Shown: positions 2,690 through 63,998 of the stretch, in pieces | Position numbering within the stretch: the first letter of the stretch is position 1 | How the letters are laid out: each line of letters begins with the position of its first letter | Source: Patescibacteria group bacterium | Lineage (GTDB): Bacteria; Patescibacteriota; Minisyncoccia; Phycocordibacterales; WO2-35-19 | DNA length: 64,000 bases | NCBI GenBank assembly: GCA_038065655.1 | Contig: JBBTQO010000001.1 | Span: forward strand, 2,517 to 66,516 | Reading direction: 5' to 3' | Notes under the pieces: model-generated | Databases searched by the model: none | What the model was told of the DNA's origin: nothing | The model's input: only the letters and a program-made list of their open reading frames with translations | Program-made: the position numbers and the translations under genes

Positions 2690-3349
2690 ATGAGAAATAG
2701 AGATTATAAAATTTTTGCTCCAGATAGTTATTATCACGTATTTAATCGTGGAAATGCCAAAATGAAAATTTTTCTAGACCAGGAAGATTACAGATTTTTT
2801 CTTTGGCGTTTAAAAGAAAACTTATTTCCTGAACAAGTTGAAAAAAACAGAAGGGCACCTTCTGCAAATCTCCCAAAAGAAAGATATGTTCGCAAACTTC
2901 TACCGCCCAATTCGTTCAGTTTGATATGCTATTGTCTTATGCCGAATCATTTTCATCTTTTAATTAGGCAAAATTCTAAAATAAAAATAAGCGAACTAAT
3001 GCTTCGTGTTTGTGGTAGTTATGCAAAGTATTTTAATAAAAAATATGATCGTGTTGGGTCACTTTTTCAAGATCAATTCAAGGCTACTTTGGTAAACAAA
3101 AATAATTATTTGCTTTGGTTATCTGCGTATATACACGAAAATCCTCGAAAAGGAAAACTGGTAGATGAATTGGGGGATTGGGAATGGAGTAGTTACCTGG
3201 ATTATACGAGTCAAAAGCAAGGTGGTTTCTGTGAAAAGGAAATAATACTGGATCAATTAAACTCTAATGGTTACAAGGCATTCGTTAATCAGAATTTTGG
3301 TAAAAAAAGAGCTATAGAATTAAATGCTTTTCTTTTAGATTTTGAATAG
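2690..3349 (+). CDS. REP-associated tyrosine transposase (RAYT; IS200/IS605-like Y1 transposase, COG1943-type)
   Basis: 219 aa; N-terminal YHVFNRGN motif and HuH motif LMPNHFHLLI, typical of Y1 transposases; flanked on both sides by the same hairpin repeat. Confidence 0.8.
   Translation: MRNRDYKIFAPDSYYHVFNRGNAKMKIFLDQEDYRFFLWRLKENLFPEQVEKNRRAPSANLPKERYVRKLLPPNSFSLICYCLMPNHFHLLIRQNSKIKISELMLRVCGSYAKYFNKKYDRVGSLFQDQFKATLVNKNNYLLWLSAYIHENPRKGKLVDELGDWEWSSYLDYTSQKQGGFCEKEIILDQLNSNGYKAFVNQNFGKKRAIELNAFLLDFE
2848..2864. repeat. REP-like hairpin (family 1) copy inside the RAYT coding sequence: cagaagg-gca-ccttctg
   Basis: Perfect 7-bp stem with 3-nt loop; encodes in-frame residues (..NRRAPSANL..) of the RAYT itself. 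Confidence 0.6.
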
Positions 3350-3351
3350 TA

Positions 3352-3368
3352 CAGAAGGTGCCCTTCTG
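3352..3368. repeat. REP-like hairpin (family 1) downstream of RAYT: cagaagg-tgc-ccttctg
   Basis: Perfect 7-bp stem, 3-nt loop, begins 3 nt after the RAYT stop codon. Confidence 0.6.
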
Positions 3369-3613
3369 TATGGTGTTTTTATCCACTGTTTTTGCTTGAT
3401 AAAAAACCTAGATTTGCCAAAATATAGTTAGATTTATCAGTAGGTTATTAGTTAATAATAGTCTTTTCAAAGCTCCTTATTTTAGGAAGAAAAAAGAATC
3501 CGGATCTTTTTGCAGGTTTGCCGTCCTCGCTAAGCGGGGCACAGGCGAACGGAAAGAGATGGAATGCTGTTTTTTCTTCTTTTAAAACAAGAGGGAATAG
3601 GAAGGACCCAAAT

Positions 3614-7769: not shown

Positions 7770-9659
7770 ATGAATAACATCAGAAATTTCTGTATCATTG
7801 CTCATATTGACCACGGTAAATCTACTCTGGCAGATAGGATGCTTGAGATAACTGGCACCATAGAAGCTCGTAAAATGAAGGCTCAAGTGCTGGATTCTAT
7901 GGAGCTTGAAAGAGAGCGGGGGATTACTATAAAAATGCAACCTGTGCGGATGCTATATCATCCGCAAGCACGAAATCCGAAATCCGAAATCCGAAATTTC
8001 GAATTTGATGCTTCGAATTTAGAATTTGCAAATTCAGAATATATTCTGAATTTGATAGATACCCCCGGCCATATTGATTTTTCATATGAGGTTTCAAGGG
8101 CATTGAAAGCGGTAGAAGGAGCGATTCTTTTGGTTGACGCTACTCAAGGTATTCAAGCGCAAACTTTGTCGGTACTGGCTATGGCTAGAACCCAAGGTTT
8201 GGTTGTTATCCCAGCTTTGAGTAAGTGTGATTCGCCTTTGGCTAGAGTGGAAGAAGTAAAAGCGGAGATAATTTCACTACTTGATTGTCAGGAGGAAGAA
8301 ATAATAGAAACTTCTGGCAAAACAGGGGAGGGAGTGGAAAAACTTTTACTTAATATTATAGAAAAAATTCCAGCGCCAAATCTTGCCAAAGATGCCCTTT
8401 GCCATTTTCCGCTTCAAGCTCTTGTTTTTGATTTTAAATATTCCGCTCATCGGGGTATTATAGTTTTTGCCAGAATAATGAAAGGAGAAGTTTCGGCTAG
8501 AGAAAATTTAATTTTTAGAGTGGCGGGGCAAAAATTTGTGGCCTTGGAAGTGGGTATTTTTAAACCAGATGAAGAAGCTCAAAAATCATTAAAAGCTGGA
8601 GAAACCGGTTATATTGTCACCGGTATTAAAACTCCGGGCATAGTTTCTGTCGGCGATACTATTGGCAAAGAAAAAGAAAATGGCAAAGCCTTAGAAGGTT
8701 ACACCCTGCCAAATCCAGTAGTTTGGGCATCTGTTTTTCCTGAGGATCAAAGCGATTTGGTGGCCCTAAAACAGGCTTTGGCAAAATTGAAATTAACCGA
8801 CTCCTCGCTTTTTTATGAAGAAGAATCATCGGGAGTTTTGGGTAAAGGTTTTAGATGCGGTTTTTTGGGGATGCTTCATTTGGAAATTATTACTGAAAGA
8901 TTGAAAAGGGAATTTGATCTGACTTTGATTATTACTCAACCGTCCATCACTTATCATTTAGAATATAAAAATGGTAAATTTGAAAAAATTTTTTCGCCAG
9001 CCTTTTTCCCGGAAGATGGTTTAATTGAAAAAATAGAAGAACCTTGGGTCAATGTTCACATTATTACCCCTTCTCAATATGTGGGGGGCCTTTTGCCGCT
9101 ACTTTATGAATATGAGGCTGAAATAGTTTCTGCCGAAGGGCATCTTCAAAATGCTCCGATCCCAGAAGATGCCCTTCGGCGGAAAACAAACATCCACACT
9201 CTGATGCCATTAAGGGAGTTGATGCGTGGTTTTTTTGATAAGCTTAAGAGTGTCTCTCAAGGATATGCCTCTCTCTCCTATGAAGAAGCGGGGATGAGGC
9301 GGGCTAATGTCACCAAACTCTGTGTTTTGGTAAATGGAGAAGAAGAACCGTCTCTTTCTCGAGTAGTTTCTAAAAGAATTGTCGAAAGAGAAGCGGAGTC
9401 TATTGTGGAGAAACTTAAAAATCTTTTACCGCGCCAAATGTTTGAGCTCAAAATACAGGCAAAAGCTCTCGGTAGAATCATCGCTTCGCGTTCTATTTCG
9501 GCTTATCGAAAAGATGTTACTCAACATATGTATGGTGGGGACATTACTCGCAAAATGAAGCTTAGAGAAAAACAGAAAAAGGGCAAAAAGAAAATGAAAG
9601 AAAGAGGTAAAATATTGATACCCCAAGATGTTTTTATAAAAATAATGCGCCCCGACTAA
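7770..9659 (+). CDS. lepA: Elongation factor 4 (LepA) with an in-frame low-complexity insertion in the G domain
   Basis: N-terminus NIRNFCIIAHIDHGKSTLADRMLE, DTPGHIDF, C-terminal LepA domain. An extra ~20 aa (PQARNPKSEIRNFEFDASNLEFANSEY) lies before DTPGH; it is encoded by the hairpin plus heptamer tandem repeat at 7944-8046. Confidence 0.9.
   Translation: MNNIRNFCIIAHIDHGKSTLADRMLEITGTIEARKMKAQVLDSMELERERGITIKMQPVRMLYHPQARNPKSEIRNFEFDASNLEFANSEYILNLIDTPGHIDFSYEVSRALKAVEGAILLVDATQGIQAQTLSVLAMARTQGLVVIPALSKCDSPLARVEEVKAEIISLLDCQEEEIIETSGKTGEGVEKLLLNIIEKIPAPNLAKDALCHFPLQALVFDFKYSAHRGIIVFARIMKGEVSARENLIFRVAGQKFVALEVGIFKPDEEAQKSLKAGETGYIVTGIKTPGIVSVGDTIGKEKENGKALEGYTLPNPVVWASVFPEDQSDLVALKQALAKLKLTDSSLFYEEESSGVLGKGFRCGFLGMLHLEIITERLKREFDLTLIITQPSITYHLEYKNGKFEKIFSPAFFPEDGLIEKIEEPWVNVHIITPSQYVGGLLPLLYEYEAEIVSAEGHLQNAPIPEDALRRKTNIHTLMPLRELMRGFFDKLKSVSQGYASLSYEEAGMRRANVTKLCVLVNGEEEPSLSRVVSKRIVEREAESIVEKLKNLLPRQMFELKIQAKALGRIIASRSISAYRKDVTQHMYGGDITRKMKLREKQKKGKKKMKERGKILIPQDVFIKIMRPD
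7944..8046. repeat. Intragenic structured repeat in lepA: 8-bp hairpin, 3.5 x heptamer cgaaatc, palindrome cagaatatattctg
   Basis: tgcggatg-ctatat-catccgca hairpin (7945-7966); tandem cgaaatc cgaaatc cgaaatc cgaaatt (7969-7996); perfect 14-nt palindrome at 8033-8046; shares an aatttagaatt core (opposite orientation) with the repeat in the methyltransferase gene at 28632-28703. Confidence 0.55.
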
Positions 9660-15283: not shown

Positions 15284-15724
15284 ATGCAAGATGACAAAAA
15301 AATAGAAGAATATATAGAAGAAGAGGATTTTGAGAATAAAGGGGGTAGGGGATGGAAAGGAAAATTTATAGATTTTATTGGGGGAAAATATTTTGTGCCA
15401 ATTACTATCGTTTTAGTAGCTATAATAGCTTTTTCTTTAGGGAGAATCTCGGGATTACAGGAAAAAAGGGAGCCGGTGAGGGTTTTAAATAACACAGTTT
15501 CTGTGGAAAACCCAACATCCAATGTTGGGCAAACGGCAGCGGTTGGTGCAAGTAATGCTAGTGGAGGATCAGTGGTGGCGTCAAAAAATGGTACTAAATA
15601 TCATTATCCTTGGTGTGCCGGCGCTAAACAAATATCAGCCAAAAATTTGGTTACTTTTGATTCTATTGAAAAAGCTCGCACCGCTGGCTACACTCCAGCT
15701 AGTAATTGTAAGGGACTCAAATAA
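15284..15724 (+). CDS. Membrane-anchored protein with C-terminal Ada-like metal-binding domain
   Basis: 146 aa; TM helix (ITIVLVAIIAFSLG); C-terminal KYHYPWCAGAKQISAKNLVTFDSIEKARTAGYTPASNC resembles the Zn-binding N-terminal domain of Ada (..CRPSC...NV.F.S...A...GFRPC..). Confidence 0.4.
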   Translation: MQDDKKIEEYIEEEDFENKGGRGWKGKFIDFIGGKYFVPITIVLVAIIAFSLGRISGLQEKREPVRVLNNTVSVENPTSNVGQTAAVGASNASGGSVVASKNGTKYHYPWCAGAKQISAKNLVTFDSIEKARTAGYTPASNCKGLK

Positions 15725-16077
15725 TAGAGAGAGGTAATAAATGGCTTAAATAAAGGGGATTTGGTAGAATTTTAGAAATAAATTTGACCACATTTTCTCC
15801 TTGACAGCAAGGTTTAAAAATGCTACACTATACGTAAGTCCAGTAAATGCTGGATTTTGTCGTTATAGGGATGTTCTTTGGCTCAGGCAACAATTTTAGG
15901 TTCGCGCTTGAGGTTTATCTGATTTGCATCTCTATCCAGCCCTAACTTCCTTAGTTATTAAATTAATTCTTAATAGGAATAAGAATTAATGAAATAGGCT
16001 AGGGGGGTTATAATCTAAAAAATGAGTTAGAGCTGGAATTAAAATTAAACAATAGGCTTATTTTTCAGACTACTGCT

Positions 16078-16554
16078 TTGGGGTTTATAATGATAGCTTC
16101 AAATATTACTGGTTTTGGTGGGGCATCGTTTGTGCCAAACACCTTACCACCAGAAGTTATAAAAATTAAAGAAACTCTTCCAAGTGACAATAAAAAAATT
16201 GTAACTAAGAAGAATATAACCGTCGAAGAGTATGTGAGAAATTATTTCTCAGACATACCAGTTTTGGTTGAAATCGCTAGATGCGAATCTCGTTTTCGTC
16301 AACATGATAAAGAGGGAGGAGTTTTGCGTGGTGAAGAGAATAATCTTGATCGTGGAGTTATGCAGATCAATGAATACTATCACAACGAAAATTCTGACAA
16401 ACTTGGATATGACATCCTTACTCTAGAAGGGAACACCGCCTACGCTAGACACCTTTTTGAAAAGTATGGTGTCAAGCCTTGGAAGTCCTCTATCAGGTGT
16501 TGGGGGGGGACTGTTGCCTACTCTGAATATAAAGACCTGGCGGTTAACAAGTAA
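16078..16554 (+). CDS. Lytic transglycosylase-like (SLT/lysozyme-like domain) protein
   Basis: 158 aa; IARCESRFRQ (candidate catalytic Glu-Ser), GVMQINEYYH, AYARHLFEKYG motifs reminiscent of SLT-domain transglycosylases. Confidence 0.5.
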   Translation: MGFIMIASNITGFGGASFVPNTLPPEVIKIKETLPSDNKKIVTKKNITVEEYVRNYFSDIPVLVEIARCESRFRQHDKEGGVLRGEENNLDRGVMQINEYYHNENSDKLGYDILTLEGNTAYARHLFEKYGVKPWKSSIRCWGGTVAYSEYKDLAVNK

Positions 16555-16571
16555 AATTAAAAAAGGAAAAA

Positions 16572-16600
16572 TAGCTCCTCCAAACGGGGGAGCTGTTTTT
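16572..16600 (+). terminator. Rho-independent terminator after the transglycosylase-like gene
   Basis: agctcc-tccaaacggg-ggagct hairpin followed by TTTTTC. Confidence 0.5.
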
Positions 16601-16668
16601 CTTAGTAAAAGCCAAAGGGCACCTTCTGGGACCGGGGCATTCTGAAGGTGCCCTTTGGCTTTTACTAA
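16600..16668. repeat. 26-bp perfect inverted repeat (REP family-1 doublet) with 17-nt spacer
   Basis: cttagtaaaagccaaagggcaccttc / gaaggtgccctttggcttttactaag; arms contain the gggcaccttctg core of the RAYT-associated hairpin at 2645-3368. Confidence 0.7.
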
Positions 16669-16776
16669 GAGATGGTAGGAACGTCGCACAATATATCTTC
16701 GCGACTCAACCAAAGGTTGGGTCGCGAAAGATAACGCCCATTTTTAGAATAAAATAATTATATTAAAAATATTCCC

Positions 16777-17037
16777 CTACTTTAACTTGGCTATGAGATT
16801 TTTTGCAAATTCAGAAACGTAATTCCAGACCCTGATTATGGCCCCGTTGTATTTTTCCCAGCCTTGAGAGCCCAGGCTGTAAAATTGATCCAAGAGCTCC
16901 TTAAATCGGCCTTGGGTCAAGAAACCCACAACATCTATGTTGTATACATATTTTAGAAGCACTAATGCGCCGATAATTATAATAATTATTTGGATAAAAC
17001 CAGTTTTTTTAGGAGATTTTATTTTTTTGTTTTTCAT
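16777..17037 (-). CDS. Small hypothetical membrane protein
   Basis: 86 aa, one TM helix (IQIIIIIIGALVLL); no recognisable family. Confidence 0.3.
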   Translation of the reverse strand: MKNKKIKSPKKTGFIQIIIIIIGALVLLKYVYNIDVVGFLTQGRFKELLDQFYSLGSQGWEKYNGAIIRVWNYVSEFAKNLIAKLK

Positions 17038-17064
17038 ATAATTTTAGATATGATTTTTAATTTA

Positions 17065-18363
17065 TTAAAAGTATAACATAGGGTCTAAGTAAGCATTGAT
17101 ACCTGATACCGGGATACTTACATTTTTACAATTAATACTAGAAGAATATTTTTGGATTTGAACTCCTTGACTAGCGTAAAGAGTAAGATGAAGATGAGGT
17201 CCGGTTGAATAGCCAGTTTGGCCGCTGTAACCAATCACCTCTCCGGTTACAACTTTTTGGCCAGCTACTACCTTAATTAAATCAAGATGACCGTAAAGAG
17301 TTGATAAACCATTTGGATGCTCTACTAAAACCCATTTACCATATGAATAGCACCCTTTTTGTTCGTCTGTGTTGCCGGTGCCAATTACGGTTCCATTAAG
17401 AGCTGCTTTAACTGGAGTGCCACGACTCGCTCTAAAATCAATTCCATTGTGAGTACCTGATGTGTAGAGGCGTTTAGCATCAATTGTTTTACCAAAATAT
17501 TGAGTGATAAAGACATTGTCCAATGGCCACGAAAGGATACCTTTACCAGAAGAAGGATAGCTATTTGGGTCAATGGCTCTTTTGAGTTGAGATTCAAATA
17601 AGAAAAGTTCTTTCTCAAATCTCTCCTTTTCCGCTTGCCTATCGGTTAACATTTTTTTGTATTCCGTCTCTTTATTTTTGGTAGTGGTTAACAGAGTACT
17701 TTTTTCTTTTTTATTTACATCTAAAATTTTGTTTTGGTCACCAAGCTCTGATTTAAAAAAAACTAATTTGTTTTTTTCTGTTTCGCTGACAGCTTTTTTA
17801 TTAAATAATTCATTTCTATAAATTTCAAGCTCTTTTGATTGGGCCCTTACTTTTTGCTGAAATTGGCCGATTGATTCATATTCATCTAAAACATCAGCTA
17901 AACTCTTGTTGGTTAAAAAACTTTCAATAAGTGATTCATCATCTTTTTGTCGCATATCGCCTAGAATTTTTGAGATAGCTAAAACATTAGATTCTATTTT
18001 TTTTTCCATGTCCCCTATTTCGCTACCGAGATTTTTAATGGTCAGGTTAGTTTTTTGGATATTAGTTTCGGTTTTCTTTATTTCTGTACCAATTTTTTGT
18101 TTGTTGATGTCAAGAACTTTTATAGCATTCTGTAGAGTTTTAGTCTCTCCGCCAACAACCTCAATTTGTTTTTCATAAACTTTTATTTCTGCGTCAAGTT
18201 GTTTAATTTTATCATTGTGACCTTCGATATTTTGTTTTATTTGGTCTACCGATTGAGCATTAGCATAATATCCTATGATAATAATAAATCCGATAAGTCC
18301 CACAAGACAAATTTGACTTATAAGTTTAATGTGGTTTATTTTTTTAAAGTGTTTGTATGGCAT
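17065..18363 (-). CDS. M23 family metallopeptidase with N-terminal coiled-coil (EnvC-like murein hydrolase/activator)
   Basis: 432 aa; TM anchor; ~250 aa coiled-coil; C-terminal M23 motifs HNGIDFRASRGTPV and GYSGQTGYSTGPHLHLTLY. Confidence 0.8.
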   Translation of the reverse strand: MPYKHFKKINHIKLISQICLVGLIGFIIIIGYYANAQSVDQIKQNIEGHNDKIKQLDAEIKVYEKQIEVVGGETKTLQNAIKVLDINKQKIGTEIKKTETNIQKTNLTIKNLGSEIGDMEKKIESNVLAISKILGDMRQKDDESLIESFLTNKSLADVLDEYESIGQFQQKVRAQSKELEIYRNELFNKKAVSETEKNKLVFFKSELGDQNKILDVNKKEKSTLLTTTKNKETEYKKMLTDRQAEKERFEKELFLFESQLKRAIDPNSYPSSGKGILSWPLDNVFITQYFGKTIDAKRLYTSGTHNGIDFRASRGTPVKAALNGTVIGTGNTDEQKGCYSYGKWVLVEHPNGLSTLYGHLDLIKVVAGQKVVTGEVIGYSGQTGYSTGPHLHLTLYASQGVQIQKYSSSINCKNVSIPVSGINAYLDPMLYF

Positions 18364-54951: not shown

Positions 54952-55692
54952 TTAGTCGGTTAAATTGTTCCCAACGTCGGACGTTTGGATATCAAAATTG
55001 TTGGGGTTAAGCGATAACCATTCAAATATTTCTTTTTTTAATATTTTTGGATCTACGAAATATTCTGGAAAATCTTTTTTAGACAAAATTTCTTTTTCCA
55101 TTCTATTTTTCCCACAGTAATCTTGATAACTACTCCACCCATAATCTTCTAAAAACTTTTTTGCCTTTTCTATATCTTTGATACCATTTTCTTTCCACAT
55201 TGGATCAATAAGTTTTACTGGATTTAGATGAATGTAAGAAAAAATGTATTTTGAGTATGGATCAGTGTCTACATAAGAACCTTTAAAATTAGTTTCAAAA
55301 AGTCCACCAGTACGTTTATATTTTGTATTGAAATATTTTGAATAAGAAGTGCAAAGTTTTTTCATAAAAAGACTTATTCCGTTCCTTTTGTGTTTCTCAC
55401 TAATGTTGGACGTTTGTTCAGGGGAAATAGTTATGAGGAGATGAAAATGATTTGGCATGAGGACCCATGCACCGATTGAAACAATTGGTTTTCCTCTGTC
55501 AAATTCCCAAACATCTATTTTTCTTCTAACTATGTCCTCTCTAAAGTTAATATATTTTTTTGAGTTAGAGAGATATAGCATTTTTACAAATCTTTTTCTA
55601 TCATAATCATCAAGAAAAATATTTTGTTTACTATTTCCTCTATTATAGAGATGGTAAAACTCACCTTCTACAAAAGGTTCTTTTCTTTGCAT
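54952..55692 (-). CDS. Second REP-associated tyrosine transposase (RAYT; IS200-like Y1 transposase), distinct family from the one at 2690
   Basis: 246 aa; YHLYNRGN and HuH motif LMPNHFHLLITI; flanked by direct copies of cccaa(c/t)gtcggacgtttggatat (54962-54984 within its 3' end; 55713-55736 upstream of the start). Confidence 0.8.
   Translation of the reverse strand: MQRKEPFVEGEFYHLYNRGNSKQNIFLDDYDRKRFVKMLYLSNSKKYINFREDIVRRKIDVWEFDRGKPIVSIGAWVLMPNHFHLLITISPEQTSNISEKHKRNGISLFMKKLCTSYSKYFNTKYKRTGGLFETNFKGSYVDTDPYSKYIFSYIHLNPVKLIDPMWKENGIKDIEKAKKFLEDYGWSSYQDYCGKNRMEKEILSKKDFPEYFVDPKILKKEIFEWLSLNPNNFDIQTSDVGNNLTD
54962..54984. repeat. REP family-2 element (cccaacgtcggacgtttggatat) overlapping the RAYT-2 C-terminal codons
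   Basis: Near-palindromic core aacgtc-g-gacgtt; same sequence at 55713-55736; inverted doublet at 63598-63643. Confidence 0.6.
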
Positions 55693-55712: not shown

Positions 55713-55736
55713 CCCAATGTCGGACGTTTGGATATG
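55713..55736. repeat. REP family-2 element (cccaatgtcggacgtttggatatg) between alaS stop and RAYT-2 start
   Basis: Direct repeat of the 54962-54984 copy, 21 bp upstream of the RAYT-2 start codon. Confidence 0.6.
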
Positions 55737-62924: not shown

Positions 62925-63998
62925 TTAATCTATTATACCACCCCCCAAACAAATTTCACCATCATATAAAACCAAAGATTGACCGGGAGAGATGCCTATT
63001 TGAGGTTGGTCAAAAATGACTCTTGTTTGCCCGTCCTTGATTTGAATTTTGCATTTTATTTTTTCTTGACGGTATCGGATGCGACAAGATAAATTTTTGT
63101 TTGGGATTTTTCCGATTAAATTTATATCCTTGATAGAAATTTCTTGGGACAAATTTGACGACCGTCCAAAATGTCGTAACTCTTGTTTTGAACTTACTGT
63201 TATCAAGTTTTTTTCAACATTTTTAGCAATTACATACAAAGGCACTTCGCTCTCTGTTTTTTGGGTAATGGTAAAGCCGTGGCGTTCGCCGATAGTGAAA
63301 AAGAGAGCACCGTTGTGGTGGCCGATTATTTCCCCATCCAGATCTAAAACGTCACCTCTTTTTTGAGGAATATATCTGGCCAAAAATTCTTTCATATTAA
63401 TTTTGCCCAAAAAGCAAAGCCCTTGGCTATCCTTCCTTGTTTCTTGTGGCAGGCCAAATTTACCTGCAAGTTTTCGAACTTCTGATTTTTGCAGATGGCC
63501 GATAGGAAAAAGAATGTGTTTAAGTTGTTCTTGGGTTAAGGTCCAGAGGAAGTATGATTGGTCTTTGTTTTTATCAATACCTTCAAGAAGCTGATTTCCC
63601 AATGTCCGACGTTTGCAACGGTTCCCAACGTCGGACATTGGGGGCATTCTTGCATAGTGTCCGGTAGCTACAAAATCAGCGCCATTTTTTAAAGCAAATT
63701 TTAGAAAGTGGCCAAACTTTATTTCTTTATTGCACATCACGTCTGGATTGGGAGTCCGCCCTTGCCTGTATTCATCAATCATATAATCAACCACTTCTTT
63801 TTTATATTCTTTTTCTAAATCAAGAGTGATGAAAGGAATATTTAAAATCGCGGCCACCTTCATGGCGCTCCGCCTATCTTCCTTCCAACTGCAAGGATAA
63901 CCTTCTGGTGTCCAAGCCTTAATAAAAACTCCAGTCACATCATAGCCATCTTTTTGCAACAAAGTTACTGAAACAGCGCTATCTACTCCGCCCGACAA
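62925..63998 (-). CDS. mnmA: tRNA-specific 2-thiouridylase MnmA (5' end runs off the window), carrying an in-frame REP family-2 doublet
   Basis: PP-loop SGGVDSAV, ..GHYAR.., NKDQSYFL, C-terminal domain. The ORF-finder start is a TTG; the true start is likely beyond coordinate 64000. The insert MPPMSDVGNRCKRRTLGN is encoded by the palindromic repeat at 63598-63643. Confidence 0.85.
   Translation of the reverse strand: MSGGVDSAVSVTLLQKDGYDVTGVFIKAWTPEGYPCSWKEDRRSAMKVAAILNIPFITLDLEKEYKKEVVDYMIDEYRQGRTPNPDVMCNKEIKFGHFLKFALKNGADFVATGHYARMPPMSDVGNRCKRRTLGNQLLEGIDKNKDQSYFLWTLTQEQLKHILFPIGHLQKSEVRKLAGKFGLPQETRKDSQGLCFLGKINMKEFLARYIPQKRGDVLDLDGEIIGHHNGALFFTIGERHGFTITQKTESEVPLYVIAKNVEKNLITVSSKQELRHFGRSSNLSQEISIKDINLIGKIPNKNLSCRIRYRQEKIKCKIQIKDGQTRVIFDQPQIGISPGQSLVLYDGEICLGGGIID
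63598..63643. repeat. REP family-2 inverted doublet (perfect 16-bp arms cccaatgtccgacgtt / aacgtcggacattggg) inserted in-frame in mnmA
   Basis: Arms are exact reverse complements separated by tgcaacggttccc; 48 nt total, a multiple of 3, in a variable loop of MnmA between GHYAR and NKDQSYFL. Confidence 0.7.

Follow-up and report, generated by a model that had tools for sequence, protein, structure and literature searches.

The mnmA gene of a patescibacterial genome carries, in frame, a 45-nt palindrome composed of two inverted copies of a 19-nt repeat that also flanks a transposase-like gene, RAYT-2, in the same 64,000-nt stretch of DNA (Patescibacteria group bacterium, assembly GCA_038065655.1, contig JBBTQO010000001.1, positions 2,517 to 66,516; hereafter 'the window', with WIN denoting its genome). 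mnmA encodes tRNA 2-thiouridine(34) synthase, and the repeat has the form of a repetitive extragenic palindromic (REP) unit, here termed REP-2; an inverted pair of such units is a REPIN (REP doublet forming a hairpin), and RAYT stands for REP-associated tyrosine transposase. The results indicate that the palindrome is probably an old REPIN of the RAYT-2 family that occupies an orthologous in-frame site in mnmA, that is competent to form a hairpin, and that has kept in step with the REP variant resident in the same genome. A RAYT/REP system of the Candidate Phyla Radiation (CPR) would, on this reading, keep one of its members inside an important tRNA-modification gene, at one site that can be compared across species; that is, in a rare natural experiment on the co-evolution of a hairpin repeat and a transposase.

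Anatomy and family of the mnmA palindrome

Read in the mnmA sense, the doublet consists of unit 1 (CCCAATGTCCGACGTTGGG, 63642-63624), a 7-nt spacer (AACCGTT, 63623-63617), and unit 2 (GCAAACGTCGGACATTGGG, 63616-63598). On the forward strand the same bases run CCCAATGTCCGACGTT-TGCAACGGTTCCC-AACGTCGGACATTGGG, that is, two perfect 16-nt arms (63598-63613 and 63627-63642) around the central segment; with the arms taken at 22 nt, complementarity is 91%. The minus-strand open reading frame (ORF) of mnmA is uninterrupted across the palindrome (...GHYAR MPPMSDVGNRCKRRTLGN QLLEG...NKDQSYFL), and, because the doublet is 45 nt long and contains no stop codon, we infer that it is translated. RNA folding of the 81-nt region around the doublet gives a minimum free energy of -35.2 kcal/mol (z = -5.6), a value matched by none of 200 shuffles. 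An Rfam scan of the doublet region returned only sub-threshold chance matches, to a microRNA hairpin, and no family, and no T-run of the terminator type follows the hairpin in the sequence. The insert is not an assembly artefact, a possibility that we considered and rejected, because all three members of the MnmA 90% cluster, from independent assemblies, are 364 amino acids (aa) long and contain it, with no insert-free allele, and because a further locus, L081, has identical DNA. The NCBI proteins MEK7669030.1 (MnmA) and MEK7669020.1 ('transposase'), both encoded on one contig, belong to the 90% clusters of the window's MnmA and RAYT-2, respectively.

The 19-nt unit of the doublet also flanks the RAYT-like gene RAYT-2 (Table 1), and the doublet is therefore a REPIN-like inverted REP doublet. 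The unit, CCCAAYG-TCSGA-CRTTKGG, has a 7-bp stem and a 5-nt loop and, as in REPs generally (imperfect palindromes of 20-40 nt), can form a stem-loop; the form next to RAYT-2 in the window is CCCAAYGTCGGACGTTTGG, and the unit in mnmA matches the two RAYT-2 flanks over 19 nt with 2 mismatches. A search for the 16-mer core with at most 3 mismatches found 7 copies in the window, as compared to 0.24 expected (0/100 shuffles), and a stricter structural scan for the 19-nt unit found 4 in 64 kb, as compared to 0.025 expected. The mnmA doublet has the two inverted units and short spacer of a REPIN, and RAYT-2 has the flanking units of a REPtron, one upstream and one at the 3' end, an arrangement also present at loci L083, L168, and L172 of other genomes. 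In two respects the family departs from REPs as usually defined. Only the unit upstream of RAYT-2 is intergenic, the others lying within mnmA, RAYT-2, and ORF 15284-15724 (+; a 146-aa protein with the unit between a predicted transmembrane helix and a Cys-containing C-terminal domain); and no GTAG stands beside the units, CGTC being present only in the window genome, internal to the stem, where relatives have CATC or AGTC.

RAYT-2 itself is, by motifs, profile match, and predicted fold, a RAYT-like HUH transposase. Across 59 homologs, H82 and H84 (PNHFH motif) and Y153 and I154 (SYIHLNP motif) are invariant, and F83, H155, and P158 are nearly so; the HUH and SYIHLNP motif residues are also invariant in a four-sequence alignment, and Y153 is, from the motif, the putative catalytic Tyr. 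RAYT-2 matches the NCBIfam profile REP_Tyr_transpos (NF047646) with E = 1.4e-10 over residues 70-160. A profile search with four RAYT sequences against PDB sequences gave nothing useful. With an AlphaFold2 model of RAYT-2 (mean predicted local distance difference test score, pLDDT, 82.8), Foldseek returned a single PDB match with E <= 0.001, 4er8_A (E = 1.1e-5; target-normalised template-modelling (TM) score 0.65), a structure of the REP-associated tyrosine transposase of E. coli in complex with a REP hairpin (PMC3479197); the TnpA proteins of IS608 and ISDra2 were second-tier matches. The only low-confidence segments of the model, residues 95-101 and 233-246, are both REP-encoded. In Patescibacteria this is a large family: 5300 homologs score at E <= 1e-5, among them some annotated with PF01797 or as transposases and one named 'REP element-mobiliz…' by JGI.

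The host protein is MnmA, with the three-domain architecture, PP-loop, and catalytic Cys residues. It matches Pfam tRNA_Me_trans (PF03054) at 4.9e-70 and the M and C domains (PF20259, PF20258), it matches solved MnmA structures at E ~1e-91, and its AlphaFold2 model aligns with 2hma, 2det, 2deu, and 2der with TM scores of 0.83-0.88; C96 and C202 are invariant in the MnmA alignment, and the SGGVDS motif is nearly invariant. The loop segment that holds the doublet, TGHY...KDQ(S/T)YFL, has a constant length of 30-31 aa in non-CPR bacteria and is 26-31 aa long in CPR orthologs with an empty site. In the alignment with solved MnmA sequences, a gap of 9 residues falls exactly where the doublet lies, and two syntenic orthologs with 72-73% identity, L084 and L085, have 30-aa segments (…NELRGMNYEL… and …NKKEGGLQIL…) with no palindrome. 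By these alignments, the doublet is an insertion that makes the loop 9-10 residues longer than in solved structures and empty-site orthologs. Comparison with empty sites defines neither exact insertion boundaries nor a target-site duplication, the loop tip being too diverged, and no clean excision gives back both the frame and a known loop. In the AlphaFold2 model of the 364-aa protein (61 sequences; pLDDT 88.9, pTM 0.86), the sole segment with pLDDT below 50, residues 133-138, lies within the insert, and the block 131-140 has a mean of 48; the model fits a tolerated, disordered passenger peptide rather than a domesticated module. An earlier, sequence-only reading of the window had described a palindrome with 16-bp arms inside mnmA, built from the REP unit found around RAYT-2 and inserted in frame so as to lengthen the loop between GHYAR and NKDQSYFL. 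These features stand, with two flank copies at RAYT-2 and 40 aa in the loop here as compared to 30 aa in L084 and L085; the length it gave, 46-48 nt extending to 63643, does not, since base 63643 lies outside the 45-nt palindrome at 63598-63642.

Orthologous doublets and the REPs of the resident RAYT

Seven more distinct mnmA doublets were recovered, from contigs encoding close MnmA homologs, in related metagenomic species: L082, L083, L086, L096, L167/168, L169/170, and L171 (L0xx and L1xx denote fetched contig loci, P00xx homologous proteins). In a scan of a genome collection with MnmA, the best match among the matches listed had 62% identity. All eight doublets lie in the same MnmA loop, in the same orientation and the same frame, with unit 1 reading x-P-x-S-D-x-G. 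In five of the eight the right junction reads GGG-C-TAC-CAR-CTT or differs from it only slightly, and the right junction GGGCTACCARCTT is conserved among species with different stem variants. We conclude that the doublet occupies an orthologous position in mnmA.

The doublets covary. In any one genome the two arms complement each other fully or nearly so; the stems themselves vary from genome to genome, with AAT/ATT, AAC…ATC-GAT…GTT, GAA/TTC, CAT/ATG, and AAA/TTT as variants. In an alignment of the eight sequences, a long hairpin of 19 pairs has 96.7% of cells paired, and 9 of the 19 pairs have changed on both sides (26 cells), a result reached by 0/500 shuffles, with slid controls at most 51% paired. 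Two separate self-folded units give a poorer fit across the eight species (92.4% paired). The second unit, being opposite in sense, encodes unrelated peptides (RRTLGN, HPMLGY, CPTSGY). Between carrier species, the MnmA segments flanking the doublet are 76-90% identical in aa sequence and the flanking third-codon positions are 37-68% identical. REPIN-unit identity is 97% for L082 and L086 and 92% for L167 and L169, as compared to 57-58% for the flanking third-codon positions; because unit identity is so far above third-codon identity, the doublet has been constrained or homogenised well beyond silent sites.

The stem variant in mnmA is the variant found at the RAYT locus of the same genome. Lineage-specific stem states are shared between the two loci in 3/3 genomes showing both: AAY..RTT in WIN (RAYT-associated REPs CCCAAYGTCGGACGTTTGG; mnmA units CCCAATGTCCGACGTTGGG / GCAAACGTCGGACATTGGG), ..ATCGGAT.. 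in L083 (internal and 3' REPs CCCTACATCGGATGTTGGG; mnmA units CCCAACATCGGATATTGGG / CCCAATATCCGATGTTGGG), and GAA..TTC in L168 (internal and 3' REPs CCCGAAGTTGGACTTCGGG; mnmA units CCCGAAGTCGGACATCGGG / CCCGATGTCCGACTTCGGG). The RAYT-associated copies were found with a stricter family pattern in L083 and by direct reading in L168; a search for copies of each ortholog's palindrome arm in its 10-20 kb flanks had found none outside mnmA, the window excepted.

The RAYT-2 orthologs of L083 (70% identity) and L168 (78%) occupy the same slot as in the window, between the alanyl-tRNA synthetase (AlaRS) gene and a gene for a protein of ~470 aa; gene order indicates that RAYT-2 is inherited vertically at a fixed position, unlike a multi-copy insertion sequence (IS). 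In both orthologs one REP lies upstream, a second is internal, in frame and directly behind the HUH motif, and a third, at the 3' end, covers the C-terminal codons. The internal REPs that correspond in position to the degenerate unit of the window are intact and in frame in L083 (10099-10120), L168 (17408-17430), and L172 (~519). L172, a distant homolog at another genomic location, has the same REP architecture with another hairpin, CCCAAGG-AGTCA-CCTTGGG; the contigs of two distant homologs, P0188 and P0156, differ from the window in synteny. The REP-encoded internal and C-terminal peptides of 120 RAYT-2 homologs (PTSDVG, PKSDFG, PMSDIG, PMSDMG, PRSHLG) are the same variants as in the mnmA inserts, and a PxSDxG-coding unit is embedded in dozens of RAYT-2 homologs among the matches listed. 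No RAYT is present between AlaRS and the ~470-aa gene in L085, L093, or the contig of P0009 (the closest empty-site ortholog, compared by gene order only), and the mnmA loop there is empty or short; at least 11 loci covering AlaRS have neither RAYT-2 nor an mnmA doublet of REP-2 type.

These comparisons bear further on the sequence-only reading. Its statement that the doublet is domesticated as coding sequence is not supported: the insert is the least confident part of the MnmA model, and the paired substitutions preserve complementarity of DNA or RNA, not the peptide. Nor is the doublet a fresh insertion peculiar to this genome; related species have homologous doublets with conserved junctions, in frame and at the same codon as here. 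The case named as refuting a REP origin, that is, close relatives lacking RAYT-2 that carry the same peptide on unrelated DNA, was not found: the doublet occurs in relatives that possess a RAYT-2 ortholog and is missing from those whose slot lacks RAYT-2.

In all RAYT-2 homologs examined, an in-frame REP stands directly after the HUH motif and a second lies over the C-terminal codons. A REP within the catalytic core of its own transposase is unusual. In L167 (the NCBI assembly of a Zambryskibacteria CG10 metagenome-assembled genome, GCA_002771075.1), a run of N at ~17357-17420 falls exactly on the internal REP and splits the gene call. We rejected a polymorphism between L167 and L168 as the source of the split RAYT, the N run being an assembly gap and the JGI assembly of the same organism, L168, being intact; the case illustrates how hairpin repeats break assemblies and annotations.

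Table 1. Coordinates of mnmA, RAYT-2, and the REP-2 units in the window.
Feature	Position	Strand	Remarks
mnmA, tRNA 2-thiouridine(34) synthase	62925..>64000	-	N-terminal 7 codons beyond window edge; 98% identity to 364-aa P0001
mnmA loop segment TGHY...KDQSYFL	63546..63665	-	40 aa here; doublet at loop tip
REPIN-like inverted doublet, REP family 2	63598..63642	-	in frame inside mnmA
RAYT-2, HUH/Y1 transposase-like gene	54952-55692	-	PNHFH and SYIHLNP motifs; predicted fold closest to 4er8
REP-2 unit (CCCAATGTCGGACGTTTGG)	55713..55731	+	just upstream of RAYT-2 start codon; non-coding, intergenic
REP-2 unit	54970..54988	+	RAYT-2 3' end, overlapping last codons (…QTSDVGNN…)
Degenerate REP-2 unit	55400..55417	+	inside RAYT-2 coding sequence, right after HUH motif (peptide EQTSNIS)
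Single REP-2-like unit CCCAACATCCAATGTTGGG	15511..15529	+	in frame (NPTSNVG) in linker of ORF 15284-15724

Possible turnover at the MnmA loop and the probable origin of the doublet

The loop that holds the doublet is a hotspot at which hairpin inserts accumulate. Its length ranges from 27 to 70 aa among 120 homologs belonging to this part of Parcubacteria, and several unrelated insert types recur in it, including SPQSRRGRDEVRVR, LPKKVLEKSLA…EDFSERSF, and AETPLSLIRRGG…. It is by far the main indel site of MnmA in Paceibacteria, with at least 5 extra residues in 89 of 121 sequences; the two sites next in rank have 26 and 23. The 43 expanded loops (at least 37 aa, counted as distinct loops over all fetched loci) have a mean fold z of -3.7, and 51% have z < -3, as compared to 4.7% of control segments of equal length taken from those genes and 1.9% of 108 unexpanded loops. 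In a neighbour-joining tree of MnmA computed without the loop, which is weakly resolved, the insert types are interleaved, and this suggests turnover at the site. The secondary indel hotspots of MnmA, at which as many as 41 residues are added, lie in the C-terminal beta-barrel, after query residues 282, 321, and 345 (26, 23, and 13 of 121 sequences).

We propose that a REPIN of the family of the vertically inherited RAYT-2, two inverted 19-nt REP units with a 7-nt spacer, entered the mnmA loop tip between GHY and KDQSYFL in an ancestor of this Zambryskibacteria-like clade of the Parcubacteria (CPR), and that later lineages inherited it without a change of codon position. It would be translated into ~15 residues that are predicted to be disordered and that the enzyme evidently tolerates; tolerance is all that is in evidence at the protein level, and domestication of the peptide does not explain the persistence of the doublet. 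The arms have stayed complementary while the stem has drifted with the REPs of the RAYT locus, a pattern that would indicate continued RAYT/REP interaction, that is, RAYT-mediated replacement or conversion, or a shared constraint from recognition by RAYT.

Several observations weigh against this proposal. REPs and REPINs usually number tens to hundreds per genome; in the 64 kb covered here, REP-2 units are repeated more often than chance predicts, but the family is sparse (4-5 sites). RAYT-2 falls below the curated cut-offs of both relevant profiles (41.3 bits as compared to 80 for NF047646; 20.9 as compared to 23 for Pfam Y1_Tnp, PF01797). The genome-specific matching of stems is based on three genomes. 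The left junctions of the doublets vary by one or more codons, and the carriers do not form one clade in the loop-free MnmA tree, which, at 60-78% identity, is poorly resolved and would fit a history of repeated gain, loss, or replacement no less than one ancient event.

The last two observations are those expected if the doublets were inserted independently, the loop tip or its DNA being a preferred or the sole tolerated target and each lineage having received its own recent REPIN. Near-perfect complementarity of the arms in every genome, with stems as in the resident RAYT REPs, would follow directly from recent insertion, and carriers scattered among empty sites and unrelated palindromic inserts, in the dominant indel site of MnmA and one that hosts so many other hairpins, would be its natural outcome. 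Independent events do not readily give 8/8 doublets identical in frame and orientation, nor a right junction that is kept across stem variants; RAYT-2 is syntenic and vertically inherited; and a tree so poorly resolved is a weak witness for scattered carriers. We regard recurrent insertion as unlikely to be the main explanation, and note that it and a single old REPIN are not fully exclusive. A hairpin selected by the host for a function of its own, for example an RNA site for RNase III or ribosome pausing that tunes MnmA, or a RAYT-binding DNA site, with the REP origin a matter of history, would account for the strong covariation, for the stem of 16-19 bp and its stability, for conservation above that of synonymous sites, and for persistence across species at the divergence observed in the flanking MnmA segments. 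However, many close orthologs have no insert, or unrelated inserts, at the site, and because so many close relatives do without it the hairpin is dispensable and a host benefit is not required; a generic hairpin would not be expected to track the RAYT REP variant; and the region has neither an Rfam match nor a terminator-like T-run. Such a function is accordingly an improbable reason for the presence of the doublet.

Two explanations remain. Template-switch correction of quasi-palindromes is an established mutational process, and a local quasi-palindrome perfected in this way would have complementary arms without selection, its likeness to the RAYT-flanking repeats being coincidental. The coincidence would have to extend to a 19-nt unit common to two RAYT flanks with 2 mismatches, to tracking in three genomes, to a window in which only 0.025-0.24 chance matches are expected, and to the PxSDxG-coding units of the RAYT-2 homologs, and we consider it very improbable. 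Still harder to credit is selection for a P-x-S-D-x-G peptide motif common to MnmA, RAYT-2, and the protein of ORF 15284-15724, with the palindrome as a by-product. The motif does occur in all three of these proteins, and again in many RAYT-2 homologs, but the second unit, opposite in sense, encodes unrelated peptides, the substitutions come in complementary pairs, the REP-encoded segments are all of low confidence in the models, and the copy upstream of RAYT-2 is non-coding. The old, orthologous REPIN in step with the resident RAYT is, on balance, the probable explanation.

Other repeats in the window, wider meaning, and known systems

The window contains a second RAYT-like gene with its own REP family (REP family 1). 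RAYT-1 (2690-3349, +) is 35% identical to RAYT-2 and is flanked by ACAGAAGGTGCCYTTCTG units; its repeats (~2644-2662, 2847-2868, and 3350-3372) are upstream, internal, and 3', as in RAYT-2, with an in-frame internal copy (…NRRAPSANL…) at a different position, and it is without the 11-aa segment that follows the HUH motif of RAYT-2. An intergenic palindrome at 16600-16670 has perfect arms of 27 nt (TCTTAGTAAAAGCCAAAGGGCACCTTC / …) around a 17-nt spacer; its core, GGGCACCTTC, matches REP family 1, and it is probably an intergenic REPIN of RAYT-1. When compared with solved structures, the ORF for LepA/EF4 (7770-9659, +; E = 5e-157 to solved EF4) contains two extra in-frame segments: one of ~20 aa (…PQARNPKSEIRNFEFDASNLEFANSE…) over palindromic, tandem-like DNA at 7964-8054, and one of ~8 aa (…SAEGHLQNAPIPEDALRRK…) over a doublet with 21-nt arms (GAAGGGCATCTTC…GAAGATGCCCTTC) at 9127-9185 that resembles REP family 1. 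Cumulative GC skew climbs from base 1 to ~17 kb and then declines steadily to the end of the window; the switch in strand bias at ~16000-18000 could mark a replication terminus or origin.

Besides mnmA, LepA in the window has two such inserts, and each RAYT gene has its own in-frame REP. We tentatively suggest that, in ultra-compact CPR genomes, where intergenic space is almost absent, REPINs survive in frame in permissive loops; that the MnmA loop tip is a long-lived 'safe harbour' in which one REPIN co-evolves with a vertically inherited RAYT and other palindromic families repeatedly colonise or replace it; and that loops of CPR housekeeping proteins have expanded to a large extent through hairpin elements. 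A practical puzzle would be explained as well: much of the variation in MnmA length among these organisms would come from translated palindromic DNA, not from adaptive protein evolution, and the same probably holds for other CPR proteins, a point relevant to the annotation, alignment, and structure prediction of CPR proteomes.

REPINs are commonly seen as intergenic passengers of large proteobacterial genomes. The system described here resembles the REPIN-RAYT systems of Pseudomonas fluorescens and E. coli (Bertels & Rainey 2011, PMC3116915; Nunvar 2010; PMC3479197) in having a hairpin unit whose inverted pair forms a longer hairpin, in having the same unit flank an HUH/Y1 transposase-like gene that is vertically inherited and syntenic, and in the co-divergence of REP and RAYT. 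It differs from them in that the doublet lies in frame within coding sequence, a conserved 5' GTAG tag is missing from the unit, the apparent copy number is very low (4-5 sites in the window), REP units stand within the RAYT reading frame itself, behind the HUH motif and at the C-terminal end, RAYT-2 is longer (246 aa as compared to 165 for the 4er8 chain) and below the curated family thresholds, and the host is a CPR bacterium. Among the top-ranked results of a literature search, none tied REPIN or RAYT terms to CPR or Patescibacteria. With the IS200/IS605 family (TnpA of IS608 and ISDra2), RAYT-2 would share the HUH/Y1 fold and the recognition of subterminal DNA hairpins; in contrast to that family, the transposase gene is not mobile cargo between IS ends but is fixed at one syntenic position, and it is the short hairpins that are dispersed.

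Rickettsia palindromic elements (RPE), attributed to Ogata et al. in 2000, are reportedly palindromic repeats that lie in frame in genes, and they are the classic example of their kind. The likeness to the mnmA doublet is a functional one: in-frame palindromes in housekeeping genes, a tolerated extra surface peptide, and a reduced genome, the difference being that the present element is 45 nt long and has an associated RAYT. Di Nocera, De Gregorio & Rocco (2013, PMC3733652) describe the short elements RPE-4 and RPE-6 as CGTC-type REPs without a dedicated transposase and RPE-1 as a longer palindromic insertion. The same work reports REP singles and dimers wholly within ORFs, those of tRNA-related enzymes included, with over half of intragenic REPs being dimers or groups and encoding 20-30 aa, and with different REPs at about one site in recB of two Xanthomonas species (PMC3733652). 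The GTAG and CGTC REP families treated there are defined by a terminal tag, and CGTC REPs have no associated transposase (PMC3733652); here, CGTC occurs only within the stem of this genome, relatives have ATCGGAT or AAGTCGGACTT, and the unit flanks a RAYT-like gene. Orthologous persistence, covariation, and matching to the REPs of a resident RAYT are not described in that work (PMC3733652). Intragenic REP dimers are already known; what differs here is an untagged unit with a RAYT that has REPs in its own frame, an orthologous, covarying REPIN matched to the REPs of the same genome, and a CPR host.

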